This document shows positions 33,205-59,518 of a stretch of DNA of 64,000 nt, piece after piece (the stretch's first letter is position 1; each line of letters starts with the position of its first letter). The notes below the pieces were generated by a model that saw nothing but the letters and a program-made list of their open reading frames with translations, was not told where the DNA came from and did no database searches. A program made the translations under genes and the position numbers. Source of the stretch: a virus; IMG/VR virus record IMGVR_UViG_3300023179_000013, positions 1 to 64,000 of that record; one strand, 5' to 3'.

Positions 33205-33960
33205 ATGATAAAATTAATTGATTTACTGCTCGAAGCAGCAACCCAACCCAAAGCCATATTTTTAGCTGGTCCTGCTGGGTCTGGTAAATCTTATATATCT
33301 AAGCAATTAATCCCATCAGGATTAACTGTAATTAATGTAGACGATACTTACGAAGAATTATTAAAAGCAGCTGGTTTAGGTACAAAAATTGCTGACTTTA
33401 GTCAAGACCAATTATCGCAAGCAGCTAAATTAATGGGTCAAGCTCAAAAAGCTACTAAAGAAAAATATGCACAATTATCTGCTGCTAAAAATAATATTGT
33501 AATAGATGGTACTGGTGCTGCTCCTAAGCCACTATTAAAGAAAAAAGCAGAATTAGAAGCATTGGGATATGACACAATGATGATTATGATTTGGGTTTCG
33601 CCTTATACATCATTAGAGCGCAATGCACAACGTGATCGTGCTTTACCTCCTGCTATTGTACTTCGTACGTGGCGTGATGTAAATAAAAATATTGAAACAT
33701 ATAGATCAGCTTTTGATAAAGATTTTATATTAGTCGATAATGATCCTGAAGCTAGATTTGAATATAACCCTGAATATGTTAAACAACAATTTTTCAAAAC
33801 AGTAAAGGGTAGTGGTAAGAAATACTCACCAGAGGAATTAGTTAAAAAGAAAGAAGAAATAGATGCTATGAATCAAGAAATAGCTAGTTTACTTACTAAT
33901 GTTCCTGACTTTATGACTATTGAAGATGCAAAATCTAAAATAAATAATTTTTTAAAATGA
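33205..33960 (+). CDS. zeta-toxin/AAA_33-like P-loop kinase with class-A head tag
   Basis: MIKLIDLLLE leader; AGPAGSGKS, INVD, IVIDGTG, SLERNAQRDR. Confidence 0.75.
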   Translation: MIKLIDLLLEAATQPKAIFLAGPAGSGKSYISKQLIPSGLTVINVDDTYEELLKAAGLGTKIADFSQDQLSQAAKLMGQAQKATKEKYAQLSAAKNNIVIDGTGAAPKPLLKKKAELEALGYDTMMIMIWVSPYTSLERNAQRDRALPPAIVLRTWRDVNKNIETYRSAFDKDFILVDNDPEARFEYNPEYVKQQFFKTVKGSGKKYSPEELVKKKEEIDAMNQEIASLLTNVPDFMTIEDAKSKINNFLK

Positions 33961-34649
33961 TTAGGTTAGTAGACATATTGAAAGAAGCTTATGTTGATAA
34001 ACAAGGAAATCTTATAAGTAATGCTGAATTTGTGGTTAAACAAAATGGATATTTTGATTTAATATTGGTAGATAAAGAAAAAATAAATATTAATAATTAT
34101 ATTAATTTTCAATCAAACCAAAGTGAATGGAATAATCAAAAAGTTGCAAATAGTATTTTTAATCAAATAATAGAATTATATAAAGGAACAGCACTTGAAA
34201 AATATAATAATATAGTTGGATTCACTCCCACAAAGAAAATAAATAGAGACAGTAATGTGTTTGATACTCCTTCATTAAGTTTATACTTTATGGAAGGTAT
34301 TGATAAAGTTGAAAATGGTGAATGGAAAGGATGGTTATTATCTCCACTATATATTGAAACTCCTATTGATAAAGAAGAATATTCTTTAAAAGGTAGAACA
34401 TTTCCTAGTATTCCTGGTTTTACTAATGAACCTGTTACTATAGGTTCTGGTGAAAAAGCAAAAACCACTACTAATCAAGAAGACATTAAAAATAAATTAA
34501 TGTATCTGAATATAATATATATACCTTTTATTCACATACCAAAATACAAAAAATCTTCCCCTAATATTGAAATTGAAACAAAATCAGATATTATTGATAT
34601 GTTTAATGAAGTAGGATTAGAGGCTCTTTCTTATAATAAATCAAAATAA
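33957..34649 (+). CDS. hypothetical protein with class-A head tag
   Basis: MIRLVDILKE leader. Confidence 0.65.
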   Translation: MIRLVDILKEAYVDKQGNLISNAEFVVKQNGYFDLILVDKEKININNYINFQSNQSEWNNQKVANSIFNQIIELYKGTALEKYNNIVGFTPTKKINRDSNVFDTPSLSLYFMEGIDKVENGEWKGWLLSPLYIETPIDKEEYSLKGRTFPSIPGFTNEPVTIGSGEKAKTTTNQEDIKNKLMYLNIIYIPFIHIPKYKKSSPNIEIETKSDIIDMFNEVGLEALSYNKSK

Positions 34650-34662
34650 ATAACTTTTTACA

Positions 34663-36066
34663 ATGAACTTAGGAGAATATTTAGCACAACAATTACTTGA
34701 AGCAGGAGAAGATAAACAAACTATTGCTTTATTCCCAGGCGCTTTCAAACCACCTCATAAAGGTCACTTTGATGTAGTTGAAAAATTATTAAAAGCAGCT
34801 GATCAAGTAGTAGTACTTGTATCACCTAAAATACGTGATGGAGTTTCTGCTGATGAATCTGTTGCTGTATGGAATTTATATAAGACCAAATTTAATGGTC
34901 CTGTCGAAATTAGAGTTGCTGCTGAATCTCCTGTTGGTGAAACATATGATGTTGTTAAAAACAACCCCGATACTGACTTTATTGTAGCGTTTGGAAAAGG
35001 TGAAATGGATCGTTATAAAAGCATGGAAAAACATCCTAATGCTAAAGTATTTGATGCTGGTGCTGTTGAAGGTGCTAATGCTACTAATTTAAGAATGGCT
35101 TTAGTTTCTAAAAATGAAGAAGAAATAGCAAAATATCTTCCTGATGGTATTAGTGTAACTGAATTTTTAACTGCAATTCAACAACCAATAGAATCAGAAC
35201 CAGAACCTGTTGCTGAGCCGGCTCCTACTACTCCTGAACAACCAGTACAAGAATCATCTCCTAATCAAGACGAAAATGATGATTACTACGATTATGTTCA
35301 AGCAAATCGTGATAAAGTAGAAAGAGTAGCTCAAGTATTTAATTATCCTATTGAGGATATGATACTTGCTTTCAACGGAGGTACACCAATGATAATGTCT
35401 GATGATATGTGGAGTGCTTTGGAAAATAGTGAATCACATAAAATTAAAGATTTAGAAAGTGCTATTTCGCATGCTTTAAAATTAGGTATCAATCCTAGAC
35501 CATATATTGATCAAATCAAGAAGAAAAAAGAAATGCCTTTACCTCTCGTACTACAATATGGTCCTAACCAATATTATTTAGTAGGAGGTGAAGTAGTATT
35601 ATCTATACTCAAAGCACTGGGTGCTATTCCTAATGTATTAGTAGGTAATATTACACCTAAAAGAGCAACATTATCCGAACCAATATTTGAAGTTTTAGAT
35701 ACTAAAAACGACAAACATAAACAAATATTAAAAAAGTTTATAGCATTTGCTATTAAAGAATTAGATATTCAAAAACCACCAAGTGGTCTTACATTATCTA
35801 AAGACAATACTAAAGCTAGATCTCGTCATACATTTGGTACTTTTAGTCCTGATAATGATAAAATTTGGCTCTATGTTAGTAATAGAAATATAGCTGATTC
35901 TTTACGTACATTAGCTCATGAGTTAGTACATCGTAAACAAGCTGAAGATAATAGATTAGATCTTACTAGCGGAGAAACAGGAAGTGAAATTGAAAATGAA
36001 GCAAATGCTCAAGCAGGAATATTATTAAGAAAATTCGGCAAACAAAACGAAGAAATATATCAATAA
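34663..36066 (+). CDS. multidomain protein: HxGH nucleotidyltransferase, ParB-like domain and HEXXH metallopeptidase
   Basis: FPGAFKPPHKGH and NATNLR; PLVL..YLVGG; RTLAHELVH...ENEANA. Confidence 0.7.
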   Translation: MNLGEYLAQQLLEAGEDKQTIALFPGAFKPPHKGHFDVVEKLLKAADQVVVLVSPKIRDGVSADESVAVWNLYKTKFNGPVEIRVAAESPVGETYDVVKNNPDTDFIVAFGKGEMDRYKSMEKHPNAKVFDAGAVEGANATNLRMALVSKNEEEIAKYLPDGISVTEFLTAIQQPIESEPEPVAEPAPTTPEQPVQESSPNQDENDDYYDYVQANRDKVERVAQVFNYPIEDMILAFNGGTPMIMSDDMWSALENSESHKIKDLESAISHALKLGINPRPYIDQIKKKKEMPLPLVLQYGPNQYYLVGGEVVLSILKALGAIPNVLVGNITPKRATLSEPIFEVLDTKNDKHKQILKKFIAFAIKELDIQKPPSGLTLSKDNTKARSRHTFGTFSPDNDKIWLYVSNRNIADSLRTLAHELVHRKQAEDNRLDLTSGETGSEIENEANAQAGILLRKFGKQNEEIYQ

Positions 36067-36069
36067 GTT

Positions 36070-37118: not shown

Positions 37119-37157
37119 TATTTATTGGTAATGAACATTTTAATCTTTTAACTAATA

Positions 37158-37439
37158 ATGGATAGCATTTACACAGTACTAATCACAGCAATTACAGTTT
37201 TAGGAGGTTCTACAGCTTTTAGATTTTACGAAAAACGTGCATTGCATAGAGAACGCGATGAAGATTTTATCCGTCACGATTGTAAAGATCGTATTTCTAA
37301 ATTAGAAGCATTATTAGAAGAATCAGCCAAAGAAAAAGACGAAATGCGTAGTTTAATTTTAAAGCTTACATCAGAAGTAGCTGAATTACGTGTTAAAGTT
37401 GAGTATTTAACTACTGAAAATAAAAAATTATCTAAGTGA
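37158..37439 (+). CDS. TM plus coiled-coil protein, possible holin-like
   Basis: ITAITVLGGS TM segment, then heptads; late motif upstream. Confidence 0.5.
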   Translation: MDSIYTVLITAITVLGGSTAFRFYEKRALHRERDEDFIRHDCKDRISKLEALLEESAKEKDEMRSLILKLTSEVAELRVKVEYLTTENKKLSK

Positions 37440-37666
37440 TAAAGCTCACCGAACTACTTATAAACGAAGGACCAGCAGAATACCCAGCTAACCACCAACC
37501 AGGAATGCGCGTAACTAAAGGTGGTTCAATGTGTGCTAATTGTGAATATTGGATTGCTGAAGGTAACAAATGTAATAATGAATATTGGTTAACTTGGCAT
37601 GATGGGAATGAAAATATTCCTTATCCTGCTGATGAATATTGTTGTAATTGGTGGCATAAAAAATAA
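37436..37666 (+). CDS. small Cys-rich (HiPIP-like spacing) protein with class-A tag
   Basis: MIKLTELLINE; CANC-x9-C...YCCNWW. Confidence 0.6.
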   Translation: MIKLTELLINEGPAEYPANHQPGMRVTKGGSMCANCEYWIAEGNKCNNEYWLTWHDGNENIPYPADEYCCNWWHKK

Positions 37667-37672
37667 ATAACT

Positions 37673-38092
37673 ATGAAATTATCAGAATTAAGACATTTAG
37701 TTAAAGAAACCCTTAAAGAGGCATTCTTTATTGGTGAAGATGATATTGAGGAATATGATGTAAAAAATGCACAAGATATAAAAGAATTTGTTGAATTCAT
37801 GCGTGAATATCAACAACAGTTAAATGAAGCTGATTGTGATTGTTTACTTGAAGCTAAATATCAAGGTCGCACTGTACCTTTAGGTAAACCAATGCGCGGT
37901 GATAGTAAGAAATTCAAGGTGTATGTTAAAAACCCTAAAACAGGTAAAGTTGTAAAAGTTAACTTTGGTGCTAAGGGAATGAATATAAAGAAAAACAATC
38001 CTATTAGACGCCGAGCCTTTAGAGCAAGACACAATTGCGCAAACCCAGGACCCCGTACTAAAGCTAGATACTGGTCTTGTAGAAAATGGTAA
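37673..38092 (+). CDS. tagged basic protein (KFKVYVK...VNFG...FRARHNC...YWSC family)
   Basis: MKLSELRHLVKETLKE leader; conserved phage/virus motif. Confidence 0.7.
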   Translation: MKLSELRHLVKETLKEAFFIGEDDIEEYDVKNAQDIKEFVEFMREYQQQLNEADCDCLLEAKYQGRTVPLGKPMRGDSKKFKVYVKNPKTGKVVKVNFGAKGMNIKKNNPIRRRAFRARHNCANPGPRTKARYWSCRKW

Positions 38093-38093
38093 T

Positions 38094-38888
38094 ATGATTA
38101 AATTAACTGACTTATTAATTGAGATGCTGTTAGAAGATCGCTGCAAGCGCATCGCTGACCGCCGTTACTCAAAACCATCTGCCTATAAATCAGGTGCTAT
38201 TGTTCGTTGCCGTAAAGGTAATATTTGGAAAGGTATTAAATCTGAAGCATTTTTCATTGGTGAAGATGATCCTGAAACCCCACAACCAGGAGAATCTAGT
38301 GGAGCAGCAGCCAAATTTAAACCAGGAACAGAACCAAAAAAAATAGAATTTTTAACACTATCTGAAATAATTCAAAAAATACCTAGTATTCCTTATTACA
38401 AGGAAGTATTAGATGACATAAAGAAGGGAGATGAAAGTTGGGGAGTAACTAAAAAAGTTAAAGAATATGCGGAATATATGATGAAAAATCCTTCATCATT
38501 AAAAAATTTACCTCCAATTATAGTAATTGATGGAAAAATACAAGATGGAGCCCATAGAATTTCAGCTATATATTTATTACAAAATTTATTAGATCCAGAA
38601 AACAATTTTTGGAAGACTTTAAAACTTAAAGTTGAATTTTGGAATAAAGAAAATTTAAACGAAAAACAAAAAGAAACCCTTCGCACTTGGTTTAAACGCA
38701 AAGGTGCTCCTGGTAAAACAGGTGGATGGGTTGATTGTAATACATGCCGCGAAGTAGATGGTAAAACCAAATGCAAACCTTGCGGCAGACAAAAAGGTGA
38801 AAAGCGAGCAAAATATCCATCTTGTCGTCCAACACCATCACAATGTAAACAACCAGGTAAAGGTACTAAATGGGGTAAAACAAAATGA
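38094..38888 (+). CDS. tagged modular protein: SAYKSG module, ParB/Srx-like domain, Cys-rich WVDC/KPCG module
   Basis: MIKLTDLLIEMLLE; LPPIIVIDGKIQDGAHRISA. Confidence 0.7.
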   Translation: MIKLTDLLIEMLLEDRCKRIADRRYSKPSAYKSGAIVRCRKGNIWKGIKSEAFFIGEDDPETPQPGESSGAAAKFKPGTEPKKIEFLTLSEIIQKIPSIPYYKEVLDDIKKGDESWGVTKKVKEYAEYMMKNPSSLKNLPPIIVIDGKIQDGAHRISAIYLLQNLLDPENNFWKTLKLKVEFWNKENLNEKQKETLRTWFKRKGAPGKTGGWVDCNTCREVDGKTKCKPCGRQKGEKRAKYPSCRPTPSQCKQPGKGTKWGKTK

Positions 38889-41596
38889 GACCAATATACA
38901 AATTCATATTACACGTAGTACACAATTTAAGTCCTTTGTTTGAATATGACCAAAAACAAATGGATGCTATTATAAATCATTATAAAGAAGAAGCAGATGA
39001 TCTAAATATTCAAATTACAGATCAACAACTTAAAAAATATATTGAACGTTTTGATCAATTAAAATCAAAGCTTATTTCTAGCGGTGGGACTGATTTAATT
39101 AAACAGATAAAAAAACCAGTTCAAATAACAACACCCTCAGGAGAGATTGTTACTAAAACAAAAAATGAATATGAAATTATAGTTCCTTTATCTAAACTAA
39201 TAAAACTTGTTACTGCATCTAAAGGTGCTGAAACAGCAGAGGATGAAGAAGATAAAACACCGGATGTAGTATACCAAAATAATGGTATTACTATATGGAA
39301 TGGTTCTAAAGAAGGTAATTGCATTACATATGGTCAAGGTGAAAGATGGTGCATTACTAGAGGATCATATGGTAATTATCGTTATTCCTCAGGTAGAGGT
39401 TATCCTACATTTTATTTAGCTAAAAACTCTAATTTATCTGATAGCGACAAATTAAGTTTTGTTGCTATACAAGTTAGAGATGCAGATGAGGATGAAAAAT
39501 ATGTTTATACTAACAGACAAAATTCACCTCATGAATCTAATTCAATGTCTTTTAGTGAATTAACATCTGAAGTTCCTTGGTTAAACGATGTTCCTAACAT
39601 TAAAAACATTTTAAAATACATTCCTTTATCTAACACAGAAAAAGTAACTCAACTTTACAAAAATAAAAGTATTAGTATTAGAGAATGGATGAAACTTCCA
39701 TTCGAAACTAAAAAACAGTATTTAGTTGTTAGAAAAGATAAAGATGAATTATTTGACGACATTGATAATAGTGTCTTTATATCTAAATACCTTCCACAAT
39801 ATCCTCAAATAGCTAATTTTATTGCTATTACTCCTGATATTATTAATTCCGAAATATTATTAGCAAACTTAGATAAATTTGATAACCAAGATAGGAAATC
39901 AATTACTGCTAATTTAAGAAAAAAAATAAGTACTAATTATCTAGATAGGGATACATTTTCATTTGATGCTAAAAAATTATTAACCTATTTGAATAAGTGG
40001 GATCTTAACTCTAACGAACGTTTATATGTTACTAAAGATGGTTCTACTATCGTTAGATTAAAACTAGGAGATACTATATCTGTTGGTTTATACCAAGCAG
40101 AAGATGATTATCCTAATATCAAATTAAATCAACGCACATCAAAATATCTATTAGACTATCCAGAATTAGATAAAATTCCTTTAAGGAATATCATTAAATT
40201 ATCTGATGATGGTGTTATTGATAAACAAGTAATTAAAAAAGTATTAGATGGTGCTAAAAAAGATCCTAATTCTGCTATTGCTGTTAAAGATGTAGATGGT
40301 AAAGAAATTGTTCTAGATTCAAACTCATTTGCTTCTTATCAAATAGATGAAGAAGGTAATTTAGTAATTGTTCCTTTTGATGATGAAAATGTGCAAAAAG
40401 CTTTTGCTGAGGAAAAAGATAATGAATCATTCCAACAAAATGCTATTAATCTTGTTAAAACATCAGTAGATGAACGCGAAAATCTTCCTTCTACAATAGA
40501 TAAAAATGCTTTTATATCTATACTTAAAGCATCTCCTTACGATAAGAGAAAAATTGAAGCACAGGGTGAAGAACATATTATATTACCATTAATATCTTCT
40601 GATGGTAATGATGTACGTATAGTAATAAAAAGCACAAATAAAAATAGCCCAACAGCTGTTACTATAGGTGGAACAGGTAATACTTGGAGAAGATATAATG
40701 TTTATTACTCATTAGGAGAAAAAGCTTGGAAAGAGTATTTTGCTTATATGAGAAATGAAAACCAAATTTATAGTGATGAAGAATTAATATCTCTTCTTAA
40801 AAGAACATACGGTTTTTCTAGTGAGTCTAAAATAGACTTTATTAAAGCAATACCACCCTTAAACCCAACAGGTCGTTATGCTGTTGCTTTTTATAATCCT
40901 AGCAATACTGCTTATATAGTTAATAAACAAAACCCAAGAGAAAGTTTTAAAGTATCTGACAGAACAGGTAAATTAGTAAAAGCAAATATATCTCCAGTAC
41001 TAGCTCGTCAATTAACCGGTGCTACACCAGACGAAGCTACACCTGTAGTTACTCCTAGAAGAGGTAGACCAGGTGGAGGAAGACGTGATGTTACTGCTCC
41101 ACGAGTTACTCCAGTTGCTAATGGTGATGTAAACGTATCTGCAAGAATGAGAGAGGCTGGATTAGAAACAGCATTTTTACGTTTACCAAGACCAGATTTT
41201 AGAAGAATAAATGTAACTAATGCTACGGGTGTTCTCCCAATTAATGATAGAGGTGCTACTCGCCGTAACAATACATTAAATGGAAGAGGCCGTGTTACCT
41301 CAGTATTATCTATAGGTGCAAGTAAAATTTATTTTATTAGATTAAATAACGGCCAAACAGTTGCTTCTATTAACATCCAACCAGGTAACAGAAACTATTT
41401 GTTAACTGGAAACGAAAACGGTAATGTAGCAGTACCAATGAATTCACCAAGTGAATTATTACAGGTATTACAAAATCGTAACTTAGCAGAAATGCGCCGT
41501 TACTTAACACAAGAATACTTAGCTAATAATCCTGAACATTTAGAAGAAGTGCGTGGATTGTTGCAACAACACATAGCTGAAACCAGAAACCAATAA
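38885..41596 (+). CDS. large hypothetical protein (YG..RWCIT domain, AT-hook-like RRGRP)
   Basis: 903-aa ORF coupled to the upstream gene. Confidence 0.7.
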   Translation: MRPIYKFILHVVHNLSPLFEYDQKQMDAIINHYKEEADDLNIQITDQQLKKYIERFDQLKSKLISSGGTDLIKQIKKPVQITTPSGEIVTKTKNEYEIIVPLSKLIKLVTASKGAETAEDEEDKTPDVVYQNNGITIWNGSKEGNCITYGQGERWCITRGSYGNYRYSSGRGYPTFYLAKNSNLSDSDKLSFVAIQVRDADEDEKYVYTNRQNSPHESNSMSFSELTSEVPWLNDVPNIKNILKYIPLSNTEKVTQLYKNKSISIREWMKLPFETKKQYLVVRKDKDELFDDIDNSVFISKYLPQYPQIANFIAITPDIINSEILLANLDKFDNQDRKSITANLRKKISTNYLDRDTFSFDAKKLLTYLNKWDLNSNERLYVTKDGSTIVRLKLGDTISVGLYQAEDDYPNIKLNQRTSKYLLDYPELDKIPLRNIIKLSDDGVIDKQVIKKVLDGAKKDPNSAIAVKDVDGKEIVLDSNSFASYQIDEEGNLVIVPFDDENVQKAFAEEKDNESFQQNAINLVKTSVDERENLPSTIDKNAFISILKASPYDKRKIEAQGEEHIILPLISSDGNDVRIVIKSTNKNSPTAVTIGGTGNTWRRYNVYYSLGEKAWKEYFAYMRNENQIYSDEELISLLKRTYGFSSESKIDFIKAIPPLNPTGRYAVAFYNPSNTAYIVNKQNPRESFKVSDRTGKLVKANISPVLARQLTGATPDEATPVVTPRRGRPGGGRRDVTAPRVTPVANGDVNVSARMREAGLETAFLRLPRPDFRRINVTNATGVLPINDRGATRRNNTLNGRGRVTSVLSIGASKIYFIRLNNGQTVASINIQPGNRNYLLTGNENGNVAVPMNSPSELLQVLQNRNLAEMRRYLTQEYLANNPEHLEEVRGLLQQHIAETRNQ

Positions 41597-42180: not shown

Positions 42181-42184
42181 AATA

Positions 42185-42571
42185 ATGATAGTAGTAGAAA
42201 GCAATCCCTTAATAGGCCAATTTGTATCTACCTTGTTTGCGTCTCGCACACAAGCCCATGTATTTCATCTTCAAACCCCTTCATTTGCTGCTCACAAAGC
42301 ATTAAATGATTATTATGATGAAATCGTAGGTTTAACTGATGGATTAGTAGAATCTTATCAAGGTAAATATGGTATTATTACTGGATACAGTAATGTTGCT
42401 TTACAAGAATACCAAAGCTGCGAAGCTATAATTGTATATTTTGAAACACTTTTGATGTATGTTGAAAAAAGCAGACAATTAATTTGTCAAGATTCATACA
42501 TTCAGAATCAAATTGACGAAGTTGTTGCTTTAATTAATTCTACTATCTATAAACTACGCTTTTTAAAATGA
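42185..42571 (+). CDS. ferritin/Dps-like four-helix protein (DUF5856-like)
   Basis: [18 protein letters not shown]...[10 protein letters not shown]...YKL. Confidence 0.75.
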
Positions 42572-43011
42572 TAAAGTTACTTGATTTATTAGAAAAAAAG
42601 ATGACACCTGCTCAAAAGAAAAAGCGTGGTGAAATATTTGATAAATTAGTAGCAGGTGGAATGGCTAAAGATAAAGCTGGAGCTATTGCAACCTCAAAAG
42701 CTATGGCTGAAAAATTAGATCCTGTAGGAAAAGAAGATGACGATATTAATAACGATGGTAAAGTAGATAAGACAGATAAGTATTTAGCTACCCGTCGCAA
42801 AGCAATAGCTGCTAATCTTAAAGAAGATCATGAAGTATCCATGGCTCAAGCTAGTTTAAAATCTATTATTAAATCTTCAATTACTTTATTAAACAAATTA
42901 GGTAATGAGGAGCGTGATATTCCAGGATGGATTCAAGACCATATCACAAACGCTGAAAACTATATTGACCAAGCGGCTCAAGGTTTTCATGAATTAAAAA
43001 ATGATGAATAA
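42568..43011 (+). CDS. tagged protein with EF-hand-like loop
   Basis: MIKLLDLLE; [12 protein letters not shown]. Confidence 0.65.
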
Positions 43012-43552
43012 AGAATTATTATTAGAAAAATATATTAAGGTAGCTGTTAAAAAGGCACTTAAAGAAGCCGAAGAACAACAGCGAAAAGCGGAAAAAGCGA
43101 TGTACCTAGTATATCGCTTTCCTGGGTTAAAAAAAGTAATGGAAGAAGTTATGTCTCCTGCTTTTGGTCGTTACATTAGTGGTATTAATATTGTTGCCCC
43201 TAAACCAACTACATTTAATGTAAGTTTAGTTAATGGTCAAGAATTTAGTGTTAAATATCTTGGCAATAAAAATTTTAGTGTTAAAGTAGCAGGTAAAAAA
43301 TATAATCCAATTAATTTAGGAGAAGCAGAACGTTGTTCACAAGCAATAGCAGATTTATTAGAATTAAATTATGCCCCTGCTGAAGGTAAAGAACAACCAG
43401 GTGCTGCTCCTGAAACAGGAGGAGCTGAAACACCACCTGCTGAACCAACAGGACCAGGAGCCTCTGAATTAGGACCTGAATTAGCTGCTGCTGAAACACC
43501 ACCAGCTGAAACACCTGCTCCTGAAGAAGAAACACCACCAGCTGAAGCTTAA
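43001..43552 (+). CDS. tagged protein with P/E/T-rich tail
   Basis: [12 protein letters not shown]; ETPPAE repeats. Confidence 0.65.
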
Positions 43553-44666: not shown

Positions 44667-45995
44667 ATGCAAAAGAAAATTGTAATTGTAGGAGCAGGCG
44701 TTGCTGGAATTAACGCTGCAACAAAATTAGTAGATAACGGCTATCCTGGTGAACTGATCACTATCATAGACAAAGGAAATGATCCACATAACCGCTTACC
44801 TGAAGAAGTAATGACAGGCATGCTTGGTGCTGGTGGTTGGAGTGATGGTAAATTAACTTATCACACATCAATTGGTGGTCAACTATCAAAATACTGTGGT
44901 GAAGAAAAAGCAATGGAATTGATGAAACAAGTAGTAGATAATTTTACTCGTTTCCATCCTAAACCAGATGAAATCTTTATGTCTGATCCACAAGAAGAAC
45001 CTGAATTTATTAAACCATACTTTGGTTTAAGAATGTTTCCTGTATGGCATATTGGTTCTAATTTCTTACATGAAATTGCTAAAACATGGTATCAATATTT
45101 GTTAGATAAAGGTATTAATTTTTGGTGGAATACAGAAGTATCAAGTATTGATTTTACAAACAATACAATATTATTTAATCCACTTAGTATAGCAGGTCCT
45201 ACTGATACTAAACATACTCTATATGATGAACTAATATTTGCAGTAGGTAAATCCGGTATTGATTTTGCTCAACAATTATCAGACGAATATGAATTCCCTA
45301 CTGAACCTAAATCAGTACAAATTGGCGTTCGATTTGAAGCACCACAAAAATACTTCCAAAAACTAATTGATGTATCCTATGACTTTAAATTATATCAAAA
45401 ATTCGATAATGTTAGTTTACGTTCATTTTGTACTAACAATAACGCTGCATATGTGGCTGTTGAAGAAACTTATGGTGACATCAGTTACAATGGTCACGCC
45501 AAAAAAGGTAAGGAATTTGAAAACCAAATGACTAACTTTGGTATCTTAATGGAAATCAAAGGTATTGAGGATCCATTTAAGTGGTCACGTGATGTAGTTT
45601 CTAAACTACAAATTAATGGTAAAGGATTATATTACTCACCAAACATGACTCGCCAACCAGGATTAACATCTGAAGGTACAACAGTAACTGCTCACCAAAT
45701 CAGTATGGATACACTGGCTCATGTTGTTGAACCAACAATGGATGGATACATGAAATATGTTATGAATTTCATCAGTGATATGAATAAAGTGTTTGAGTTT
45801 GGTGATGATTGGGGTATGTATATTCCTGAGGTAAAATATCTTAGCCCTGAACCACTGGTAAACTATGATAGTTTAGCATTAGCTCCTTTTCCTAATGTGC
45901 ATTTTGTAGGTGATGCCTTAAGTGCACGTGGTATTACAGTTAGTGGTGCTCATGGAATTTATGTTTCTGAATATTTATTGTCAAATGGACAATAA
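44667..45995 (+). CDS. FAD/NAD(P)-dependent oxidoreductase
   Basis: IVIVGAGVAG, GGWSDGKL, GVRFE, RSFCTN, HFVGD; early-type promoter at 44639. Confidence 0.85.
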   Translation: MQKKIVIVGAGVAGINAATKLVDNGYPGELITIIDKGNDPHNRLPEEVMTGMLGAGGWSDGKLTYHTSIGGQLSKYCGEEKAMELMKQVVDNFTRFHPKPDEIFMSDPQEEPEFIKPYFGLRMFPVWHIGSNFLHEIAKTWYQYLLDKGINFWWNTEVSSIDFTNNTILFNPLSIAGPTDTKHTLYDELIFAVGKSGIDFAQQLSDEYEFPTEPKSVQIGVRFEAPQKYFQKLIDVSYDFKLYQKFDNVSLRSFCTNNNAAYVAVEETYGDISYNGHAKKGKEFENQMTNFGILMEIKGIEDPFKWSRDVVSKLQINGKGLYYSPNMTRQPGLTSEGTTVTAHQISMDTLAHVVEPTMDGYMKYVMNFISDMNKVFEFGDDWGMYIPEVKYLSPEPLVNYDSLALAPFPNVHFVGDALSARGITVSGAHGIYVSEYLLSNGQ

Positions 45996-47751: not shown

Positions 47752-48009
47752 ATGATAGAAAGAAGAGGAAGAATAAAAGAACAAACAGCAGAAGATAAAC
47801 CACGTAAATTTACTCGTGTTTATGAGGATGAAGACACAATTGAAACATGGACATTTAATTTAGATAAATTTGCTCGTGGTCCAATTGATGTTGATATCAA
47901 ATATAAAGCTGGTGCTGAAAAACGTATTAAAGAACGTGTTAAAGAGGCTAAGCAAATTAAGAAGAATGAACGCCAAATGAACAAAATTAATAAACGTAAT
48001 AAAAAATGA
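47752..48009 (+). CDS. small basic protein
   Basis: Early-type promoter in a hairpin at 47717-47747. Confidence 0.65.
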   Translation: MIERRGRIKEQTAEDKPRKFTRVYEDEDTIETWTFNLDKFARGPIDVDIKYKAGAEKRIKERVKEAKQIKKNERQMNKINKRNKK

Positions 48010-48527: not shown

Positions 48528-48562
48528 TATTTATGGACATCACACTAAACGAATTGAAAGTA

Positions 48563-49633
48563 ATGAAAGCTAAACAACTCCGCAGAATTATTCGCGAAGC
48601 AATACAAGAAATATTAACTGAAGGCCCGGCAGAAGATAAAAAAGCACAAGATACTGAAAAACAGGCAACTCAAGCTCAAATAGCTGCTTTGCAGAAGAAA
48701 AAATCAGAATTAAATACTGCTACTCCATCAGCTGCTGACAAACCAGCTCACGATGCTGAAAAAGTAGCTGTTGACAAAAAAATAGCATCTCTAGGTAAAA
48801 AAATGCAAAAATTAAATAAACCTGGTATTTCTGCTCTCGAATTGGATGAAATGGCTCGTACCCCTAAAGGATTCCGTTTAGCTGATGAAAATATAGATAC
48901 TGCTCAATATGCTAACAAACGCGTTAGTGGAACTTCATTACAAGACATTATCAACTACTTCCGCGAAAACCCAGGTGCTGATAAAAAATCATTACAATCA
49001 CAATTTAATTTTGCTCGCCCACAAATCGCCAATGCTGTAGTAAACGCATTGCTTGATGCTGGTGTGTTAGTTAAATTAGGTGCTGGAGGTGAAGTTGAAG
49101 CTACACCTGAACCAGGTGAAGAAGTAGCACCACAAGCTACTGAACCAGAAGATTTGTTTATGGGTGGTGCTGATAATCCTCTCGCAATGTATTTTGATGA
49201 TAAACCAAATGATGATGGTTCTGAAGACTTTACTGATAGTACTGAACCAGAAGCTGGTGAACTTGAAAAAGCAGAACCTGCTGCCGGCTCAATGTCAGAT
49301 GAAGATTATAATACCTGGATGAAATATGATGATTTATCTCAACGCTTAGCTGCTACTAAATCTAATATCTTAAAATTAAGAAAATCTAGAACAACAGCTG
49401 GTGATATCTCAGATAAACCATCAACTGAATTACAACGTTTACGTGATTTAAAAAAATCACTTGAAGATAGAATTAATGATTTAGTTGCAGGTTCAGATTA
49501 TTTAAAAAATAAAATTGCAAAACAAACTGGCAAACCAGTTGAACCAATTGAAACACCTGAAGAAGAAACAGAAGAACCATTAGATGAATGGACAATTGGA
49601 AAAATGCAATATTACGCTGGTATTAAAAAATAA
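48563..49633 (+). CDS. acidic protein with class-B N-tag and class-C C-tag, probable core protein
   Basis: LRRIIREAIQEILTE at the N-terminus; KMQYYAGIKK at the C-terminus. Confidence 0.7.
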   Translation: MKAKQLRRIIREAIQEILTEGPAEDKKAQDTEKQATQAQIAALQKKKSELNTATPSAADKPAHDAEKVAVDKKIASLGKKMQKLNKPGISALELDEMARTPKGFRLADENIDTAQYANKRVSGTSLQDIINYFRENPGADKKSLQSQFNFARPQIANAVVNALLDAGVLVKLGAGGEVEATPEPGEEVAPQATEPEDLFMGGADNPLAMYFDDKPNDDGSEDFTDSTEPEAGELEKAEPAAGSMSDEDYNTWMKYDDLSQRLAATKSNILKLRKSRTTAGDISDKPSTELQRLRDLKKSLEDRINDLVAGSDYLKNKIAKQTGKPVEPIETPEEETEEPLDEWTIGKMQYYAGIKK

Positions 49634-52127: not shown

Positions 52128-54017
52128 ATGGCTGAACAAAATACAGGCTTATTTAGTAGATTAAGACGCCTATTCTCCACAGATGTTATCATCAGAAATG
52201 TAGGAGGCAATCAGTTAAAAACGGTAGACGTTGACAGAATTCAAGCTTACGGAAACGTAAAAACAAATGCTTTAATTGATAGATTCACCAAGTTGCACCG
52301 CTATGGCGCTAATATGCCATACAACCCAACAATGAACTACCAAACACTTCGTATTCAGTTATATACTGACTATGAAGCAATGGATACAGAATCAATTGTT
52401 GCCTCTGCTCTTGATATTGTTGCTGATGAATCAACATTAAAGAATGAAGCTCAAGAAGTAGTACAAATCAGAAGTGCTGACGAAAATGTTCAACGCATTT
52501 TATATAATTTATTCTATGATGTTTTAAACATAGAATTTAACTTATGGTTATGGATTCGCAATATGTGTAAATATGGCGACTTTTATTTACACCTTGAAAT
52601 TGCAGAAAAATTTGGTATTTACAGCGTAACACCATTATCAGTTTATGATATGGTTCGTGAAGAAGGTACAGATCCTACTAATCCATCTTATGTGTGTTTT
52701 AAGATTGATCCAATGGTAATTGCCGCTGGTGGTATCAACTCACGTGTTAAAGATAGAGATGGTAAGATTAAATTTGAAAATTATGAAATAGCGCATTTTA
52801 GACTATTAACTGACGCTAACTACTTGCCTTACGGACGTTCTTATATTGAGCCTGCTCGTAAGTCTTATAAGCAATATGTGTTGATGAAAGATGCTATGTT
52901 GTTACATCGCATCACCCGTGCCCCAGAAAAACGTATCTTCTACGTTGATATTGGAAACTTACCTCCGAATGAAGTTGATGGATACATGGAGCGTTTAAAG
53001 CAAAAAATGCAAAAAACTCCATTCATCGACAAAAATACTGGCGAATATAACTTACGTTATAACATGATGAACGTAATGGAGGACTTCTATATTCCACAAC
53101 GTGGCGCTAATAGCAATACTAAAATCGATACCTTAAAAGGTTTAGAGTATAATGCTATTGATGACGTAAACTTCCTCCGCGATGAAATGTTAGCAGCACT
53201 TAAAGTACCTAAAGCTTTCTTCGGATTTGAAAAAGACTTAACAGGTAAGGCTACATTAGCTGCTGAAGATATTCGTTTTGCTCGCACCGTTGAACGCATT
53301 CAACGTATTGTTGTTAGTGAATTGTATAAAATAGCCTTAGTACACTTATACGTTCAAGGATATGATGGTGAATCATTGACTAATTTCGAATTATCATTGA
53401 CTACTCCATCAATCATCTATGAACAGGAAAAAGTAGCATTATGGAAAGAAAAAATAGCATTAGCTAAAGATATCCAAGATACCAAATTATTACCTTCAGA
53501 TTGGATTTATGATAATGTATTCCAATTCAGCGAAGATCAATATGATGAATATCGTGATTTAGTACTTGAAGATATGAAACGTACCTTCCGCTTATCCCAG
53601 CTTGAAAACGAAGGTAACGACCCAGCTAAATCTGGTAAATCTTATGGTACACCACACGATCTTGCTTCATTGTATGGTAAAGGAAGAAATGGTGTTGGTG
53701 ATACAGGTGCTATCCCTCCTGGATATGACGAAAAACGTCCTGTTGGTCGTCCTGAAGAGAAATCTTCTATTGTAGGTACACAAAAAGACCCATTAGGTAA
53801 AGATAGATTAGGTAGTATTGAAAATGGTACATTATATACTGCTAATATTCCTGATGAAGGAAGCAGTACACCAAAAGGTGGTTCACCATTAGCATTAGCT
53901 GAATCTAAAAAGCATAAAGGCTTACTTGAAGGAATGAGTGCCTTCCGTAAAGAATTAGCTATTAAACCTGAACAGGAATCTACACTATTGGACGAAAAAA
54001 ATATCAAGGACGTATAA
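52128..54017 (+). CDS. gp20: portal protein (T4 gp20-like)
   Basis: RITRAPEKRIFYVDIGNLP, EDFYIP, TKIDTL, ALKVP, EDIRF. Confidence 0.95.
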   Translation: MAEQNTGLFSRLRRLFSTDVIIRNVGGNQLKTVDVDRIQAYGNVKTNALIDRFTKLHRYGANMPYNPTMNYQTLRIQLYTDYEAMDTESIVASALDIVADESTLKNEAQEVVQIRSADENVQRILYNLFYDVLNIEFNLWLWIRNMCKYGDFYLHLEIAEKFGIYSVTPLSVYDMVREEGTDPTNPSYVCFKIDPMVIAAGGINSRVKDRDGKIKFENYEIAHFRLLTDANYLPYGRSYIEPARKSYKQYVLMKDAMLLHRITRAPEKRIFYVDIGNLPPNEVDGYMERLKQKMQKTPFIDKNTGEYNLRYNMMNVMEDFYIPQRGANSNTKIDTLKGLEYNAIDDVNFLRDEMLAALKVPKAFFGFEKDLTGKATLAAEDIRFARTVERIQRIVVSELYKIALVHLYVQGYDGESLTNFELSLTTPSIIYEQEKVALWKEKIALAKDIQDTKLLPSDWIYDNVFQFSEDQYDEYRDLVLEDMKRTFRLSQLENEGNDPAKSGKSYGTPHDLASLYGKGRNGVGDTGAIPPGYDEKRPVGRPEEKSSIVGTQKDPLGKDRLGSIENGTLYTANIPDEGSSTPKGGSPLALAESKKHKGLLEGMSAFRKELAIKPEQESTLLDEKNIKDV

Positions 54018-54053
54018 CAACTACATATTTATAGGTAGTGCATACTATTTTAT

Positions 54054-54908: not shown

Positions 54909-54915
54909 AAATAAA

Positions 54916-55476
54916 ATGGCACAATTAATCAACGAAGCAAAAAGAATGCAATTTTTAGCAGGTCTTATTACTGAATCACAATTAAATGAAGAAAGTATTA
55001 AGTCTTTATTAAAACAAAAAGAAGATGTAGTTAAAATATTATCACCTTTAAAAGGAACTACATTAAACTTAGTAGGGTTAAGTGAAGATAACAAACCAAA
55101 CGGATGCACAGCTACAGCTACTGTATCTAATATAAATAATGAATATTATCCACAAGGGTCTAATAGTGATCCAGATTATTTTCAAATAAGCCCAGAACTT
55201 ACTTTTACTATTTCTAATGAAAAATTAGGTAGTGATCAAGAAGAAAATAATAAATTTAAAAAAACTTTAGAAGATATCAAATCAACACCATGTACTATTT
55301 CTGGTGGTGGAAGTAATAAATTAAAAGTTATTATGGATGCTAATAGTGGTTTTTTAAGTGGCTATGAAATAGGAGCTACTAAAGAAAGTACATTCTTTAA
55401 AAAACTTGAAGAAATACTTAAAGCAGATATACAGTGGCAAAGTAAAGGTGGCGATTTATTAGCACTTGGAGCATAA
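54916..55476 (+). CDS. hypothetical protein with class-C tag
   Basis: LINEAKRMQFLAGLITE. Confidence 0.7.
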   Translation: MAQLINEAKRMQFLAGLITESQLNEESIKSLLKQKEDVVKILSPLKGTTLNLVGLSEDNKPNGCTATATVSNINNEYYPQGSNSDPDYFQISPELTFTISNEKLGSDQEENNKFKKTLEDIKSTPCTISGGGSNKLKVIMDANSGFLSGYEIGATKESTFFKKLEEILKADIQWQSKGGDLLALGA

Positions 55477-55486
55477 TATAAAAATA

Positions 55487-56406: not shown

Positions 56407-56418
56407 ATTACAATACAA

Positions 56419-58299
56419 ATGAAAAGTATAAAGCAACAATTCATTGATTTGAAAGAAGGTAGAATGTCACAACAAAATTTCATGAGAAATTTACGTATGG
56501 CTATGCCTCATTATGTAACTAATGTAACATCATTTGGCGATGCTGTTAAAATTCTTCGCAATAAGGGTATTTTAAATGAAGCTTTAATTGAAGGAAATCT
56601 TGACGTTGATCAAGAAGAATTAAAAAAAGGCATCAAAGTTGAAATGGAACATACTAAAGATCGTATTAAAGCTGAAGAAATTGCTTTAGATCATTTACAA
56701 GAAGATCCTAAATATTATACTAAATTAGATAAAGCTGGTTTAGAAGAGAATGATGGTGATGATGATGAAATCCAAGCTATGATTGATAAATACGAAAAAG
56801 AAAAAAAAGGTGAAGAAGCTGTAATGAGCCAATATGATGAAAATCTAAATGAGGCTAAAGCTAAATGGGAAAATGCTAATGGAAAATCAATGTATGCTCA
56901 ATTTAAAGAAATTGACAATTTAAATGGTCAAGAAGTATTGATTGGTATTGATTTGGAAATGGAAAAAGACGAAGATTTATCTAAAATTGAAGCTGCCAAG
57001 ATTGTCCTTAAAAACCTAAAGAAAAACCCAATCTACTATACAGCTATGTTATTAGCTGGTGGTAAAGAAATGACTGAAATTCCAACTATTGGTAAATTAA
57101 AGCCTGGCTCTGACAAAATGAAAGAAGTCAAAGGTGAAGATAGCTTGGTTGATAAAGATAATGGAATGAAGCCGGTTAAAGATATTGAAAAAGTAAAAGC
57201 ATCATCTAATAAAGCTTCTAAAGAAACTAACAAACCAGAAAAAGGCATTTCATTGATGTCATTAGTTGCTAAAGCATCTCGTGGTGTTCAAAAAATGAAT
57301 GCTACTGGTGAAAAAATGAAAGTAGTAAAAGAAGATTTAGAGCGTGATTTTGATCCTGAAATTGAAGGCAAACCATCATCAGCATATATGCAGTTTTTAG
57401 CACAAAAGAAAGGTGAAGAAGCAGCTGCTGAAATACATAATGGCCTTAAAAGAGGAGATAAAGTAAAAGTTAATTCTGAAGCTGCAAAAGCATTAAAAAT
57501 TAATCCTAACGAAACCTTTACTATCACTTCATTTAAAACAAACCGTCCAGGTTCTTTATTACAAAGTATTGATGTAGAATTAGCAAATAAAGTTGGTCAA
57601 AGTGTTGGATATGTTAATGTAGAATATGTGTATGAAGCTGGTAGTGAAACACCAAAAGTTGATAATGGTAGTGTTCCATCAACTATATTTAGCAGAAACG
57701 CTGGTATTTCTCAAAAATTAAAATCATTGTCTAAAGACGATTTAATGGAAATAATTCGTGAAGAATTATCTGAATATTTTGATGGTCGTGATAATTTAAC
57801 TGACACTGCTGGTCATCAAAATGAAGGAATAGTATCTGGAGCTTTAGCTAAAGTTAAAGATAAAATTGTTAATTCTTCTTTATTTAAAAAACTTATAGAT
57901 ACAATTGTATCTAAAATGTCTGACAAAGATATAGCTGCTTTTAAAGCTAAATTTAATATTTCTGAAGCAGAAGGTGGTCCGTCTTTAGAAGATATTATGT
58001 CTAAAGTAGATGCTATTAATCCTGATAAAACTGCTAAAACTCCTGAAGATTTAAAAGAAGCACTTGATGAAGATACACTTGAGGGAAAAATAGCTGGTTT
58101 GGTTAGAAGCATAGCTGGGATTAATTTATTAGCTTTAGGTGGTGCTCCATTAGGTATTTTTATTAATTCTTTATTAGGAATTGCTACGTGGGGATTTGGA
58201 GCTTTTATAGGTCCCGTGATTAGTTTAGTAGCTTCTCTTATTATTCATGGAATATCTAGTAGACTTTTAGGAAAAACAGGTGATGACGAGTTAGTTTAA
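56419..58299 (+). CDS. modular head protein with two DUF5661-like repeats and a C-terminal hydrophobic hairpin
   Basis: GIKVEMEH...IALDHLQEDPKYYT and GIDLEME...IVLKNLKKNPIYYT; many LxE sites. Confidence 0.7.
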   Translation: MKSIKQQFIDLKEGRMSQQNFMRNLRMAMPHYVTNVTSFGDAVKILRNKGILNEALIEGNLDVDQEELKKGIKVEMEHTKDRIKAEEIALDHLQEDPKYYTKLDKAGLEENDGDDDEIQAMIDKYEKEKKGEEAVMSQYDENLNEAKAKWENANGKSMYAQFKEIDNLNGQEVLIGIDLEMEKDEDLSKIEAAKIVLKNLKKNPIYYTAMLLAGGKEMTEIPTIGKLKPGSDKMKEVKGEDSLVDKDNGMKPVKDIEKVKASSNKASKETNKPEKGISLMSLVAKASRGVQKMNATGEKMKVVKEDLERDFDPEIEGKPSSAYMQFLAQKKGEEAAAEIHNGLKRGDKVKVNSEAAKALKINPNETFTITSFKTNRPGSLLQSIDVELANKVGQSVGYVNVEYVYEAGSETPKVDNGSVPSTIFSRNAGISQKLKSLSKDDLMEIIREELSEYFDGRDNLTDTAGHQNEGIVSGALAKVKDKIVNSSLFKKLIDTIVSKMSDKDIAAFKAKFNISEAEGGPSLEDIMSKVDAINPDKTAKTPEDLKEALDEDTLEGKIAGLVRSIAGINLLALGGAPLGIFINSLLGIATWGFGAFIGPVISLVASLIIHGISSRLLGKTGDDELV

Positions 58300-58322
58300 G
58301 AATTAATTTATAAATAACAAAA

Positions 58323-58934
58323 ATGAGTAAATCATTATTAATAGATCACACCCCCTTTCAATCAGCTAAGCTTACTTTAGTTGAAGGTAAAGATACTAAA
58401 GCTGGTTTAGTTGAATTAGTAGGTAAACTACAAGCCGCTGACCAAGAAAATGGTAACAATCGTAAATATCCTTTTAAAGTTCTTAAACGTGAAGTAGACA
58501 AATATTTAGAAGGTCCTGTTAAAACACGTACTGCTTTAGGCGAATTAGATCATCCTGAAGCATCTGTTGTAAATTTAGCAAATACTTCACATGTTGTCAC
58601 TGATGTTTGGTGGGATGGAAATAACGTTATGGGTAAAATCCAATTATTACCTACACCATCAGGCAATATTGCTAAAGCATTAATTTTATCAGGTATTCCA
58701 CTTGGTATTTCATCTCGTGGTATGGGTTCAGTTAAACAGTTAGGTGAAACTGTAGAGGTACAAGACGATTTCGAATTATTATGTTGGGATTTAGTATCAG
58801 TACCATCAACCCCACAAGCATATATGCAATTAGCTGAATCTAAGAAATTTGCTTCAGTTAAAGATTATAGTAAAGTAAATGAATTAATTACCGAAATTAT
58901 TTGCGCACAAACAGGAGTATGTCCACTATGTTAA
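58323..58934 (+). CDS. gp21: prohead maturation protease (T4 gp21-like)
   Basis: NGNNRKYP, ALGELDHP, SH, GISSRGMGS, WDLVSVPS. Confidence 0.93.
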   Translation: MSKSLLIDHTPFQSAKLTLVEGKDTKAGLVELVGKLQAADQENGNNRKYPFKVLKREVDKYLEGPVKTRTALGELDHPEASVVNLANTSHVVTDVWWDGNNVMGKIQLLPTPSGNIAKALILSGIPLGISSRGMGSVKQLGETVEVQDDFELLCWDLVSVPSTPQAYMQLAESKKFASVKDYSKVNELITEIICAQTGVCPLC

Positions 58935-59518
58935 TACAAGAAGCAAAAAGACTACAGCAATTAGCTGGTATTATAACTGAAGCTGAAGATGCTAAAGCTG
59001 AACAAGCTGTTGAAAAAGGATTAAAATCTTTTTTAAATATTTTACAATCAGCGGAACAACAGGTTAAAGTATCTCCTAATGATGGAAAACAAAATGAAAT
59101 TTTTGTAACTCTAGCATCTATTATAATAGGAGCACCAGGATTATTAAATTTACTTGGGAAAGGAGCAGATCTTATAGGACAATATTTTTCACAAGGTGCT
59201 GTTAATAAAACAAAAATAGGTGATTTGTTAAAAACTGCAGGTCATAATTTAGAAAACCAATATATAGGTTCTTTAGCAGGATGGATTAAAGCAGCTTATC
59301 CTAAAAGTTATGGAGATCAAGATCCTTTTGACAAAACATCAGAATTACATGATTTAGCTCATGGAGCTTACGCTTCTTTATTAGTTGGAGCTGCTATTGG
59401 ATCTGGACTTGAAGCAGGCCATGCTATAAATGCTGTTGTTAAAGGGCTCGAAGGGGGTGCTGCTGCTTTTAAAACATCTGAAGTAGCAGATTTAGCTAAA
59501 AAAATAGTAGCTGCTTAA
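58928..59518 (+). CDS. class-C tagged protein with hydrophobic helices
   Basis: MLIQEAKRLQQLAGIITE; IFVTLASIIIGAPGLL; LLVGAAIGSG. Confidence 0.7.
   Translation: MLIQEAKRLQQLAGIITEAEDAKAEQAVEKGLKSFLNILQSAEQQVKVSPNDGKQNEIFVTLASIIIGAPGLLNLLGKGADLIGQYFSQGAVNKTKIGDLLKTAGHNLENQYIGSLAGWIKAAYPKSYGDQDPFDKTSELHDLAHGAYASLLVGAAIGSGLEAGHAINAVVKGLEGGAAAFKTSEVADLAKKIVAA

Follow-up and report, generated by a model that had tools for sequence, protein, structure and literature searches.

Why should a phage genome give the same few short peptides to a whole series of otherwise unrelated proteins? The question is raised by the first 64,000 nucleotides (here called the window) of IMG/VR record IMGVR_UViG_3300023179_000013, a complete, terminally redundant genome of 168,946 bp that belongs to a T4-like phage of Flavobacterium-type bacteria. 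A sequence-only reading of the window had proposed that about 20 proteins share short tags ending in a prohead-protease site, and that these tags load an enzyme payload into the head. In phage T4 a capsid targeting sequence (CTS) is carried by IPI, IPII, IPIII and Alt and is removed by the prohead protease gp21 (Mullaney and Black 1996; reviewed in PMC9026906, PMC5694885, PMC3012670). The genome holds about 17 N-terminal tags that we consider solid, of which 14 are inside the window; apart from one variant they belong to three classes (A, B and C). On balance we regard it as probable that the peptides of these classes dock proteins to the prohead and are then cut off, as an enlarged version of the T4 CTS.

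The tally comprises six class A tags, seven class B tags (within the first 30 residues), three class C tags and a variant leader on the protein at 34663 (genes and proteins are named here by the first position of the gene), somewhat fewer than the number proposed earlier. Fourteen of the 17 tagged genes lie within a 26.6-kb block of 33 genes, as compared with three of the 199 genes elsewhere (binomial P of about 2e-9). This block, at about 33-59.6 kb, sits between the tail/baseplate genes and the head module. Every peptide quoted in the sequence-only reading was found in its place, and its view that the tagged bodies are unrelated holds as well, since no mutual similarity was detected among them at BLAST E<1e-8. 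The primase, the exonuclease, the HAD phosphatase and the oxidoreductase, which it had named as tagless, were confirmed to carry no tag; the same is true of the P-loop protein at 48006, and all five served as controls.

To follow the tags through relatives, we used 80 IMG/VR loci surrounding the portal gene, a further 80 surrounding the exonuclease gene and 50 kb of Flavobacterium phage vB_FspM_immuto (immuto). A locus search via the 903-aa protein at 38885 yielded one locus only. Protein bodies were clustered at 70% mutual coverage; single linkage at 50% coverage had chained unrelated families via fused open reading frames (ORFs).

The class A pattern M-I-[KR]-L-x-[DE]-[LI]-L has six matches in the whole genome (33205, 33957, 37436, 38094, 42568 and 68189), all at residue 1, and these include the five core members of the earlier proposal. 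In about 160 related loci, 221 of the 222 matches to the class A profile with at least 8 bits were N-terminal. The logo built from 160 unique tags on 63 body clusters reads M1 I2 K3 L4 x [DEN]6 [IL]7 L8 x E10, with frequencies of 98% for L4, 98% for [IL]7, 91% for L8 and 81% for E10, and conservation stops abruptly after residue 10. A potential protease site, [LIVMF]xE, is present at positions 8-10 in 129 of the 160 tags and within positions 6-14 in 155. At the DNA level the upstream sequence is not conserved, the tag region shows codon periodicity with relaxed third positions, and Leu is encoded by both TTA and CTA. Selection therefore acts on the peptide and not on the DNA. The proteins at 43556 and 46416, and the capsid N-terminus MNIQSLLE, had also been likened to class A; none of them gave any score with the class A profile, and they were dropped.

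Among the tagged bodies two recognisable enzymes were found, a zeta/PNK-type (polynucleotide kinase) kinase at 33205 and a nucleotidyltransferase at 34663. The Pfam Zeta_toxin/AAA_33 domain of the kinase starts at residue 13-18, behind the tag. In its AlphaFold2 (AF2) model the mean predicted local distance difference test score (pLDDT) is 88, while residues 1-10 form a detached helix with a pLDDT of 48. The closest folds are zeta/PezT toxins, Clostridium PNK and AvrRxo1, and in 22 orthologues, down to 30% identity, M1, I2 and E10 are invariant. The class A set holds true enzymes, this kinase and, in relatives, a HAD phosphatase. The tag is present in 19 of 25 members of the 37436 family and in 13 of 15 members of the 42568 family. 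The 33957 body matched no Pfam, PHROGs or NCBIfam family, and an Atlas search with it was uninformative. The neighbour of the sixth class A gene, 68189, begins MKLSNLILE/G (a slash marks a cut position, predicted in the case of this phage), and both genes lie beyond the second capsid gene, in a stretch of neck and tail genes.

The nucleotidyltransferase, whose domain carries the (H/T)xGH motif, had been counted as a relative of class A. Its leader stands up to scrutiny: it ends in LLE/A, lies outside the enzyme domain and is conserved in orthologues as MNLGQY[IL]A..[IL]LE. Membership in class A does not, as no match to the class A profile was obtained. The kinase and this NMNAT-like enzyme, both with leaders, are separated by one tagged gene (33957), and at the place that corresponds to 33205-36066 immuto has a 907-aa protein annotated as a NadR-type enzyme. 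Conceivably, the two enzymes act in nicotinamide adenine dinucleotide or nucleotide-sugar chemistry when infection begins.

For most other bodies no function emerged from Pfam, PHROGs, NCBIfam or the ESM Atlas. The "ParB-like" and "nuclease-like" bodies of the sequence-only reading found no support in the family searches, and 43556 gave merely a sub-threshold match to CdiA_C (17.9 bits). Of the enzyme payload that it had envisaged, the kinase and the nucleotidyltransferase remain, but several proteins of classes B and C resemble cleavable proteins of the core or scaffold type more than effectors.

The class B pattern L-[KR]-x-[IL]-[IV]-[KR]-E-x-[IL]-x-E occurs at seven sites of the genome, six of them in the first 16 residues of a protein (17485, 37673, 41623, 45995, 48533/48563 and 55487) and one internal, at 149584. 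An iterated profile added 43001 and the C-terminus of 12867. All seven N-terminal members of the earlier list are thereby recovered; the C-terminal helix that had been listed for 12882 matches the profile and stays uncertain, and the internal site in 56419 was rejected with a mere 4.3 bits. From 114 unique tags on 49 body clusters the consensus is M-K-K-S-E-L-[KR]-x-[IL]-[IV]-[KR]-E-x-[IL]-x-E, followed by a stretch rich in Gly, Pro and Ala, with Glu at profile position 17 in 78 of the 114. In the related loci 139 of 157 profile matches were N-terminal.

Several class B proteins are unusually rich in potential cleavage sites. The 37673 protein has the highest [LIV]xE density of the proteome, and together with 17485, 41623 and 55487 it is among the ten richest proteins, alongside the scaffold. 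The leader of 43001 is conserved in 27 orthologues, some of which bear MKLQDLRHIIEE instead. Orthologues of 55487 are tagged in 23 loci, including immuto (MKKSQIVKAVQEVLEE), and the immuto orthologue of 17485 starts with MKLDLLKKLIKEAVKE. In some relatives a 54916-like and a 55487-like gene form one open frame, in which the class B tag is internal and follows G-[IV]-x-E-N-K-(E/N)-M. Such a fusion resembles a naturally occurring polyprotein whose two modules are joined by a cut site. A 626-aa DUF5661 protein (56419-58299, E 3e-14) is encoded between 55487 and the protease; its immuto orthologue has 360 aa and an internal MKKAELKEGFKKLIKKVLSEE that resembles the start of a formerly separate tagged gene.

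The protein at 48533 has features of both a tagged and a scaffold protein. Sixteen of 20 orthologues carry the class B tag. The C end reads KMQYYAGIKK, preceded by LDE, and is scaffold-like; relatives have (R/K)xQ(F/Y)YAGI(I/K)K at this position. The AF2 model consists of long helices and disordered acidic linkers, with a predicted template modelling score (pTM) of 0.28. Encoded upstream of the terminase, this protein may be a second scaffold or core protein.

Class C, (E/Q)AKR(M/L)Q.LAG(I/L), stands at the head of 54916, 58928 and 152021. As judged by sequence, it is the scaffold's own C-terminal peptide: the scaffold of this phage ends with ARMQKLANIK, and most relatives have RMQKLAGIIK. By profile this C-terminal motif was found in 19 of 30 scaffolds. 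We also scanned IMG/VR in an unbiased manner for DNA encoding MQKLAGI(I/M). Of 122 sites, 94 were at most 4 residues from the C-terminus of proteins of 300-500 aa, and the 28 others were mostly N-terminal. Among unique C-terminal contexts [LIVM]-x-E is present 5-14 residues upstream of the motif in 80 of 81, and among unique non-C-terminal contexts I-x-E follows the motif immediately in 24 of 24. Therefore a protease-type site lies between motif and body, whichever end bears the motif. The scaffold itself contains 13 [LIV]xE[ASG] sites, as compared with 3.0 expected. In one relative a 189-aa protein (L006:13948-14517) has a class C tag directly followed by a class B tag, in tandem (NETKRMQQLAGLITE/SQSNEVDQLTEIRQLVKEVIQE/S).

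Three tagged genes, 54916 (class C), 55487 (class B) and 58928 (class C), are encoded between portal, protease and scaffold, and occupy the positions of the T4 genes for the core proteins gp67 and gp68. Of the class B and C proteins encoded in the head operon or close to it, some probably serve as accessory components of the core or scaffold and are degraded themselves.

A scan of relatives for cargo swapping, as the sequence-only reading had suggested, revealed homologous bodies with tag A, B, C or none. Orthologues of the HAD phosphatase mostly start at the catalytic MYTIYCDMDGV, and in a few this motif is preceded by MIKLIDLLNE or NLADLLLEE and a linker. The 37673 body (EYDVEN...) has a class B tag here, a class A tag in 37 relatives, and B or none in others. 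In a Pro/Glu-rich family the tag is either of class B or of class C, and the DUF5872 body is preceded by class A in 38094 and by a class-B-like leader in the immuto orthologue. The tags lie outside the recognisable domains, as indicated by the Pfam starts and, for the kinase, by the AF2 model. Such natural gain, loss and exchange on orthologous bodies indicates evolutionary portability, not functional sufficiency. The comparative evidence strongly favours tags that are portable, fixed in position and linked to the head machinery. A fourth shared leader, M(A/E)(D/N)NF(D/N)L(K/R)KFL(V/T)ENKL...(L/K)E, is confined to the immuto-like subclade; the genome studied here has none. Immuto itself has tags of classes B and C besides this fourth one, and a class-A-like leader on its HAD protein. 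This leader is also internal in two loci (L071 and L078).

The tagged genes share an upstream element with head genes. No enrichment of the T4-type late promoter TATAAATA was seen ahead of the genes of this phage. The word ATATTTAT is found 20-33 nt before the start codons of the terminase, portal, 54054, scaffold, neck, sheath and tube genes, and also ahead of the first genes of tagged operons (33205, 37158, 41623, 45995 and 48533) and of 17485 and 152021. Of its 42 forward-strand copies, 25 fall into intergenic upstream sequence, which makes up 2.9% of the genome. Because it overlaps the first ATG of 48533, the start at 48563 is favoured for this gene. As a putative promoter, ATATTTAT has a placement that fits co-expression of tagged proteins with head genes. 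A second promoter-like word, TTGTATATTTA[AC], stands before small early-looking ORFs at 2-8 kb.

The head module resembles that of T4 and has a T4-type terminase, a portal protein (Portal_T4), a prohead protease (Peptidase_S77), a scaffold at the gp22 position and two capsid paralogues; almost all genes are on the + strand. By tblastn the capsid protein is gp23-like. Its closest cultured relative is that of immuto (58.5% identity), and those of Microcystis phage Mel-JY01 and Rhodothermus phage RM378 are more distant. In an alignment the capsid sequence QLVTE/ASSTG, which would end a predicted 59-residue propeptide, stands opposite FLTE/AEIGG of T4 gp23, where FLTE/A is the gp23 maturation site.

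Table 1. Coordinates of tagged proteins, head genes and related features (positions refer to the window unless a locus is named; bits are scores of the profile of the respective class; a slash marks a predicted cut)
Position	Strand	Feature	Leader or end	Evidence
33205..33960	+	class A P-loop kinase	MIKLIDLLLE, residues 1-10	regex; profile 14.2 bits at residue 1
33957..34649	+	class A protein	MIRLVDILKE	profile 16.4 bits at residue 1
34663..36066	+	nucleotidyltransferase, NMNAT/cytidylyltransferase-like	13-residue extension MNLGEYLAQQLLE/A	Pfam/NCBIfam domain from residue 21-23
37436..37666	+	class A 76-aa Cys-rich protein, GTG start	IKLTELLINE	profile 12.9 bits
38094..38888	+	class A DUF5872 protein	MIKLTDLLIE	profile 13.2 bits; DUF5872 from residue 13
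42568..43011	+	class A 147-aa protein	MIKLLDLLE	profile 10.9 bits
68189, just beyond window (with its neighbour in 67849-68521)		class A protein	MIKLSDLLKE	genome-wide regex
17485..17847	+	class B 120-aa protein among baseplate genes	MNIKLFKKLIKEAVTE	profile 14.5 bits
37673..38092	+	class B 139-aa protein	MKLSELRHLVKETLKE	profile 23.3 bits
41623..42180	+	class B 185-aa Lys-rich protein	MNDFQIRAFVRQLISE	profile 15.9 bits; ATATTTAT 27 nt upstream
43001..43552	+	class B-like 183-aa protein		profile 12.6 bits
45995..46423	+	class B 142-aa basic protein	MTKQQLIETIRRVIKQELNE	profile 24.9 bits; ATATTTAT 24 nt upstream
48533..49633	+	elongated helical 366-aa protein, class B at N end	MKAKQLRRIIREAIQEILTE, likely start 48563	profile 28.5 bits
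55487..56278	+	class B protein in head operon	MNLKEYIKSLVRKQLEEE/S	profile 14.8 bits
12867..13124	+	85-aa protein, class B-like helix at C-terminus	LKELLRKIVREELLK, ending the protein	profile 12.7 bits, residues 70-83
54916..55476	+	class C protein in head operon, between portal and protease genes	MAQLINEAKRMQFLAGLITE/S	profile 39.4 bits
58928..59518	+	class C protein between protease and scaffold, true start ATG at 58928	MLIQEAKRLQQLAGIITE/A	profile 34.9 bits
59672..60952	+	scaffold, gp22 position	ends IVE/SNDVIARMQKLANIK	C-terminal motif
52128..54017	+	portal protein, T4 gp20 type		Pfam Portal_T4, E 1.6e-69
58323..58934	+	prohead protease, T4 gp21 family		Pfam Peptidase_S77, E 8.2e-35, profile positions 19-190 of 198
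60985..62652	+	major capsid protein	predicted gp21-type cut after LVTE59/A	tblastn to gp23-type capsids
L016:11752-12687; L017:12999-13916; L022:4143-4820; L031:13461-14411		fused 54916/55487-like frames in relatives		
immuto (L001) 23806-24354, 37631-38632, 38632-38931, 45241-45468; also loci L040-L078		fourth leader		
14565, 20715, 27523, 33178, 41596, 45971, 48527, 50481, 52102, 54025, 59547		ATATTTAT		
2103, 2495, 3344, 4986, 5247, 7441, 7880		TTGTATATTTA[AC]		

Taken as prohead-docking tags, the three peptides would act in the following way; binding, cleavage, packaging and injection we infer. Late in infection the tagged proteins would be made alongside the head proteins, and the tag helix would bind to the assembling scaffold core or to the inner face of the shell, as suggested by T4 biology. 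Class C proteins would dock by copying the C-terminal peptide of the scaffold. Once the shell is closed, the gp21-family protease would cut at [ILV]-x-E between tag and body, as the sequence rule predicts; the cut would free the body inside the head, and the small peptide would escape. Bodies that survive proteolysis would then exit with the DNA at the next infection, again following T4.

The tag position and the evolution of the tags bear on two readings that do without the prohead. That the similarity is a by-product of AT-rich start contexts for translation initiation, as in Bacteroidota phages, combined with chance amphipathic helices, is barely credible. MIKL does begin three unrelated T4 proteins and also the untagged 132437 protein of this phage, and MKK starts are common. 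Moreover, when N-terminal 25-mers were compared all against all, without gaps, and set against internal and C-terminal windows, the N-terminus showed no clear excess, and high scores were no more frequent there than in internal windows; this crude pairwise scoring was too noisy, due to paralogues and low complexity, and profiles were used instead. The strict N-terminal position of the class A profile matches (221 of 222), the conservation of 81-98% at positions 6, 7, 8 and 10 in spite of synonymous codon variation and unconserved upstream DNA, and the gain and loss of tags on orthologues with linkers intact all speak against such an origin, and a translational or compositional artefact is largely refuted. 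A conserved N-terminal leader common to many unrelated proteins could also be the leader peptide for a modifying enzyme, similar to those of ribosomally synthesised and post-translationally modified peptides and a radical-SAM/SPASM maturase. We consider this very improbable and rejected it, as the complete genome encodes no SPASM domain and its sole radical-SAM gene is located at 135.7-137.2 kb in a sugar island, about 76 kb from the tagged block. Three different leaders would also require three modes of recognition, and it would be left unexplained why class C is the same as the scaffold end.

Amphipathic helices are generic interaction modules, and the common partner of the tags could be something other than the capsid (for instance a hub protein or chaperone, an enzyme complex, or a site in the membrane), with the [ILV]xE sites being incidental. 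The metabolic look of the HAD and nucleotidyltransferase cargo, the location of 17485 among baseplate genes and a class A profile without detectable homology to the T4 CTS would suit such a partner. However, it would explain neither why class C equals the terminal peptide of the scaffold nor the site rule at both kinds of position (80 of 81 and 24 of 24), and the interchange of B and C, and of A and B, on homologous bodies as well as the tagged genes inside the head operon argue against it. No candidate hub was found, and we regard this reading as quite unlikely. Targeting to the prohead could, on the other hand, be real and serve mostly accessory core or scaffold parts that are degraded in maturation like gp67, gp68 and gp22, with no injected payload. 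The gene 67/68 positions of 54916, 55487 and 58928, the high [LIV]xE content that 37673, 17485, 41623 and 55487 share with the scaffold, the elongated helical 48533 family with docking motifs at both ends, and the lack of an enzyme signature in most bodies are in agreement with this. For the set as a whole it is nevertheless unlikely, since class A includes a confidently folded kinase with few internal sites and is also found on HAD phosphatase orthologues, the nucleotidyltransferase bears a variant leader, and the 63 class A body clusters are far more variety than a structural role needs. For part of the set, mainly class B and C proteins near head genes, degradable core proteins may be the right description.

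This last point is the most serious qualification of an enlarged CTS system, and other observations weigh against it as well. With a frequency of 1.6 per 100 residues [LIV]xE is a common tripeptide. HAD phosphatases and nucleotidyltransferases are of a nucleotide-metabolism type and would be expected to act in the cytoplasm. Because of its position among baseplate genes, a head role of 17485 is less certain, and 12867 has no obvious cleavage site upstream of its C-terminal helix, which makes its status uncertain. The putative late promoter ATATTTAT is also found ahead of some non-structural genes. The contact between scaffold C-terminus and shell in T4-type scaffolds is inferred from other phages. 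Among 137 T4 ORFs, about half of the T4 proteome, the class A, B and C profiles gave no match to gp24, IPI, IPII, IPIII or Alt, and the likeness of class A to the T4 CTS appears to be one of pattern and shared logic, not of detectable homology. A relaxed pattern starting at Met1 (x-x-hydrophobic-x-[DE]-hydrophobic-hydrophobic-x-E), written after both sets had been seen, selects only gp24, IPII and IPIII among these 137 ORFs (about 0.05 expected) and only four class A proteins among the 232 ORFs here (about 0.13 expected). A literature search for a virion proteome, N-terminal sequencing or a packaging assay of this phage or its relatives, including immuto and Mel-JY01, returned none. We still favour cleavable prohead-docking tags. 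The packaging interpretation of the sequence-only reading is supported in part: the portable, position-specific tags, the S77 protease and the match of class C to the scaffold end speak for it, while the supposed likeness of the capsid N-terminus and three of the related class A members fail against the profile.

More tentatively, the tags may represent a capsid-address code shared by a whole clade of aquatic T4-like phages, with at least four interchangeable dialects, one of which mimics the scaffold. It is possible, though we would not yet expect it, that a leader of 10-20 residues with a protease site recruits almost any protein, among them zeta-type kinases, nucleotidyltransferases and phosphatases, for ready-made delivery into the next host, and that gain, loss and swap of tags are a main route by which this arsenal evolves. 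The T4 CTS has so far been a narrow textbook case of four proteins in one coliphage group. If the proposed code is real, protein delivery by T4-like phages would be far larger and more modular than thought, with a dozen or more cargo proteins per virion type and hundreds of cargo families in nature. It would then provide a readable sequence code that predicts which genes without known function are packaged and act first in the infected cell, which would aid the annotation of many "hypothetical" genes in environmental phage genomes, and it would offer a means to load foreign proteins into Bacteroidota phages. The tie between class C and the scaffold suggests how such signals arise and what they bind.

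In other tailed phages scaffold C-terminal peptides dock on the coat protein (P22 gp8 and similar). In every relative class C is likewise the helix at the very C-terminus of the scaffold; it differs in that the peptide is reused at the N-terminus of other proteins, where it is flanked by a protease site. In the giant phages SPN3US, phiKZ and 201phi2-1 a gp21-like protease cuts the propeptides of ejection proteins (PMC5694885, PMC7411985). The prohead protease of these phages is homologous, many of their head-internal proteins are processed and later ejected, and the paralogues gp53 and gp54 have identical N-termini. However, the propeptides comprise 79-127 residues and are cut at (A/S/G)-x-E, and no short tag is common to unrelated bodies. 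The literature that we searched on the capsid targeting sequence yielded nothing on phages outside the T-even and giant-phage groups, and our search found no publication on the tags described here.

The closest counterpart is the T4 CTS itself, where the first 10 residues of IPIII suffice for packaging, and where mutagenesis assigned residues 4 and 7 to targeting and residues 8 and 10 to processing (PMC9026906). In the T4 record IPII and IPIII start with MKTYQEFIAE/A, IPI with MKTFKEFTSTTTPVSTITE/A, gp24 with MAKINELLRE/S, gp22 with MLKEQLIAE/A, gp21 with MNEPQLLIE/T and Alt with MELITE/L. Both systems share the Peptidase_S77 protease family and short N-terminal peptides (10-20 residues) that end in [IL]-x-E, with unrelated bodies that vary between related phages. 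Class A and the CTS have a length of 10, hydrophobic residues at positions 4, 7 and 8, an acid at 6 and Glu at 10; tags of classes B and C are out of register with the functional positions of T4. The match is closest for the 10-residue propeptide of gp24, which agrees with class A position by position (M-x-K-[IL]-x-[DE]-L-L-x-E), while the capsid proteins of this phage lack a class A tag and have a predicted cut after a 59-residue propeptide, as gp23. T4 gp22 and gp21 also start with hydrophobic-hydrophobic-x-E. The two systems differ in scale, with about 17 tagged proteins per genome here and four in T4, with three tag classes to which a sister clade adds a fourth, and with no fewer than 63 class A and 49 class B body clusters across the clade, recognisable enzymes included, and here tags are swapped between classes on one body. 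What appears to be new is the enlargement of the T4 CTS principle to about 17 proteins per genome, with several tag dialects and mimicry of the scaffold.

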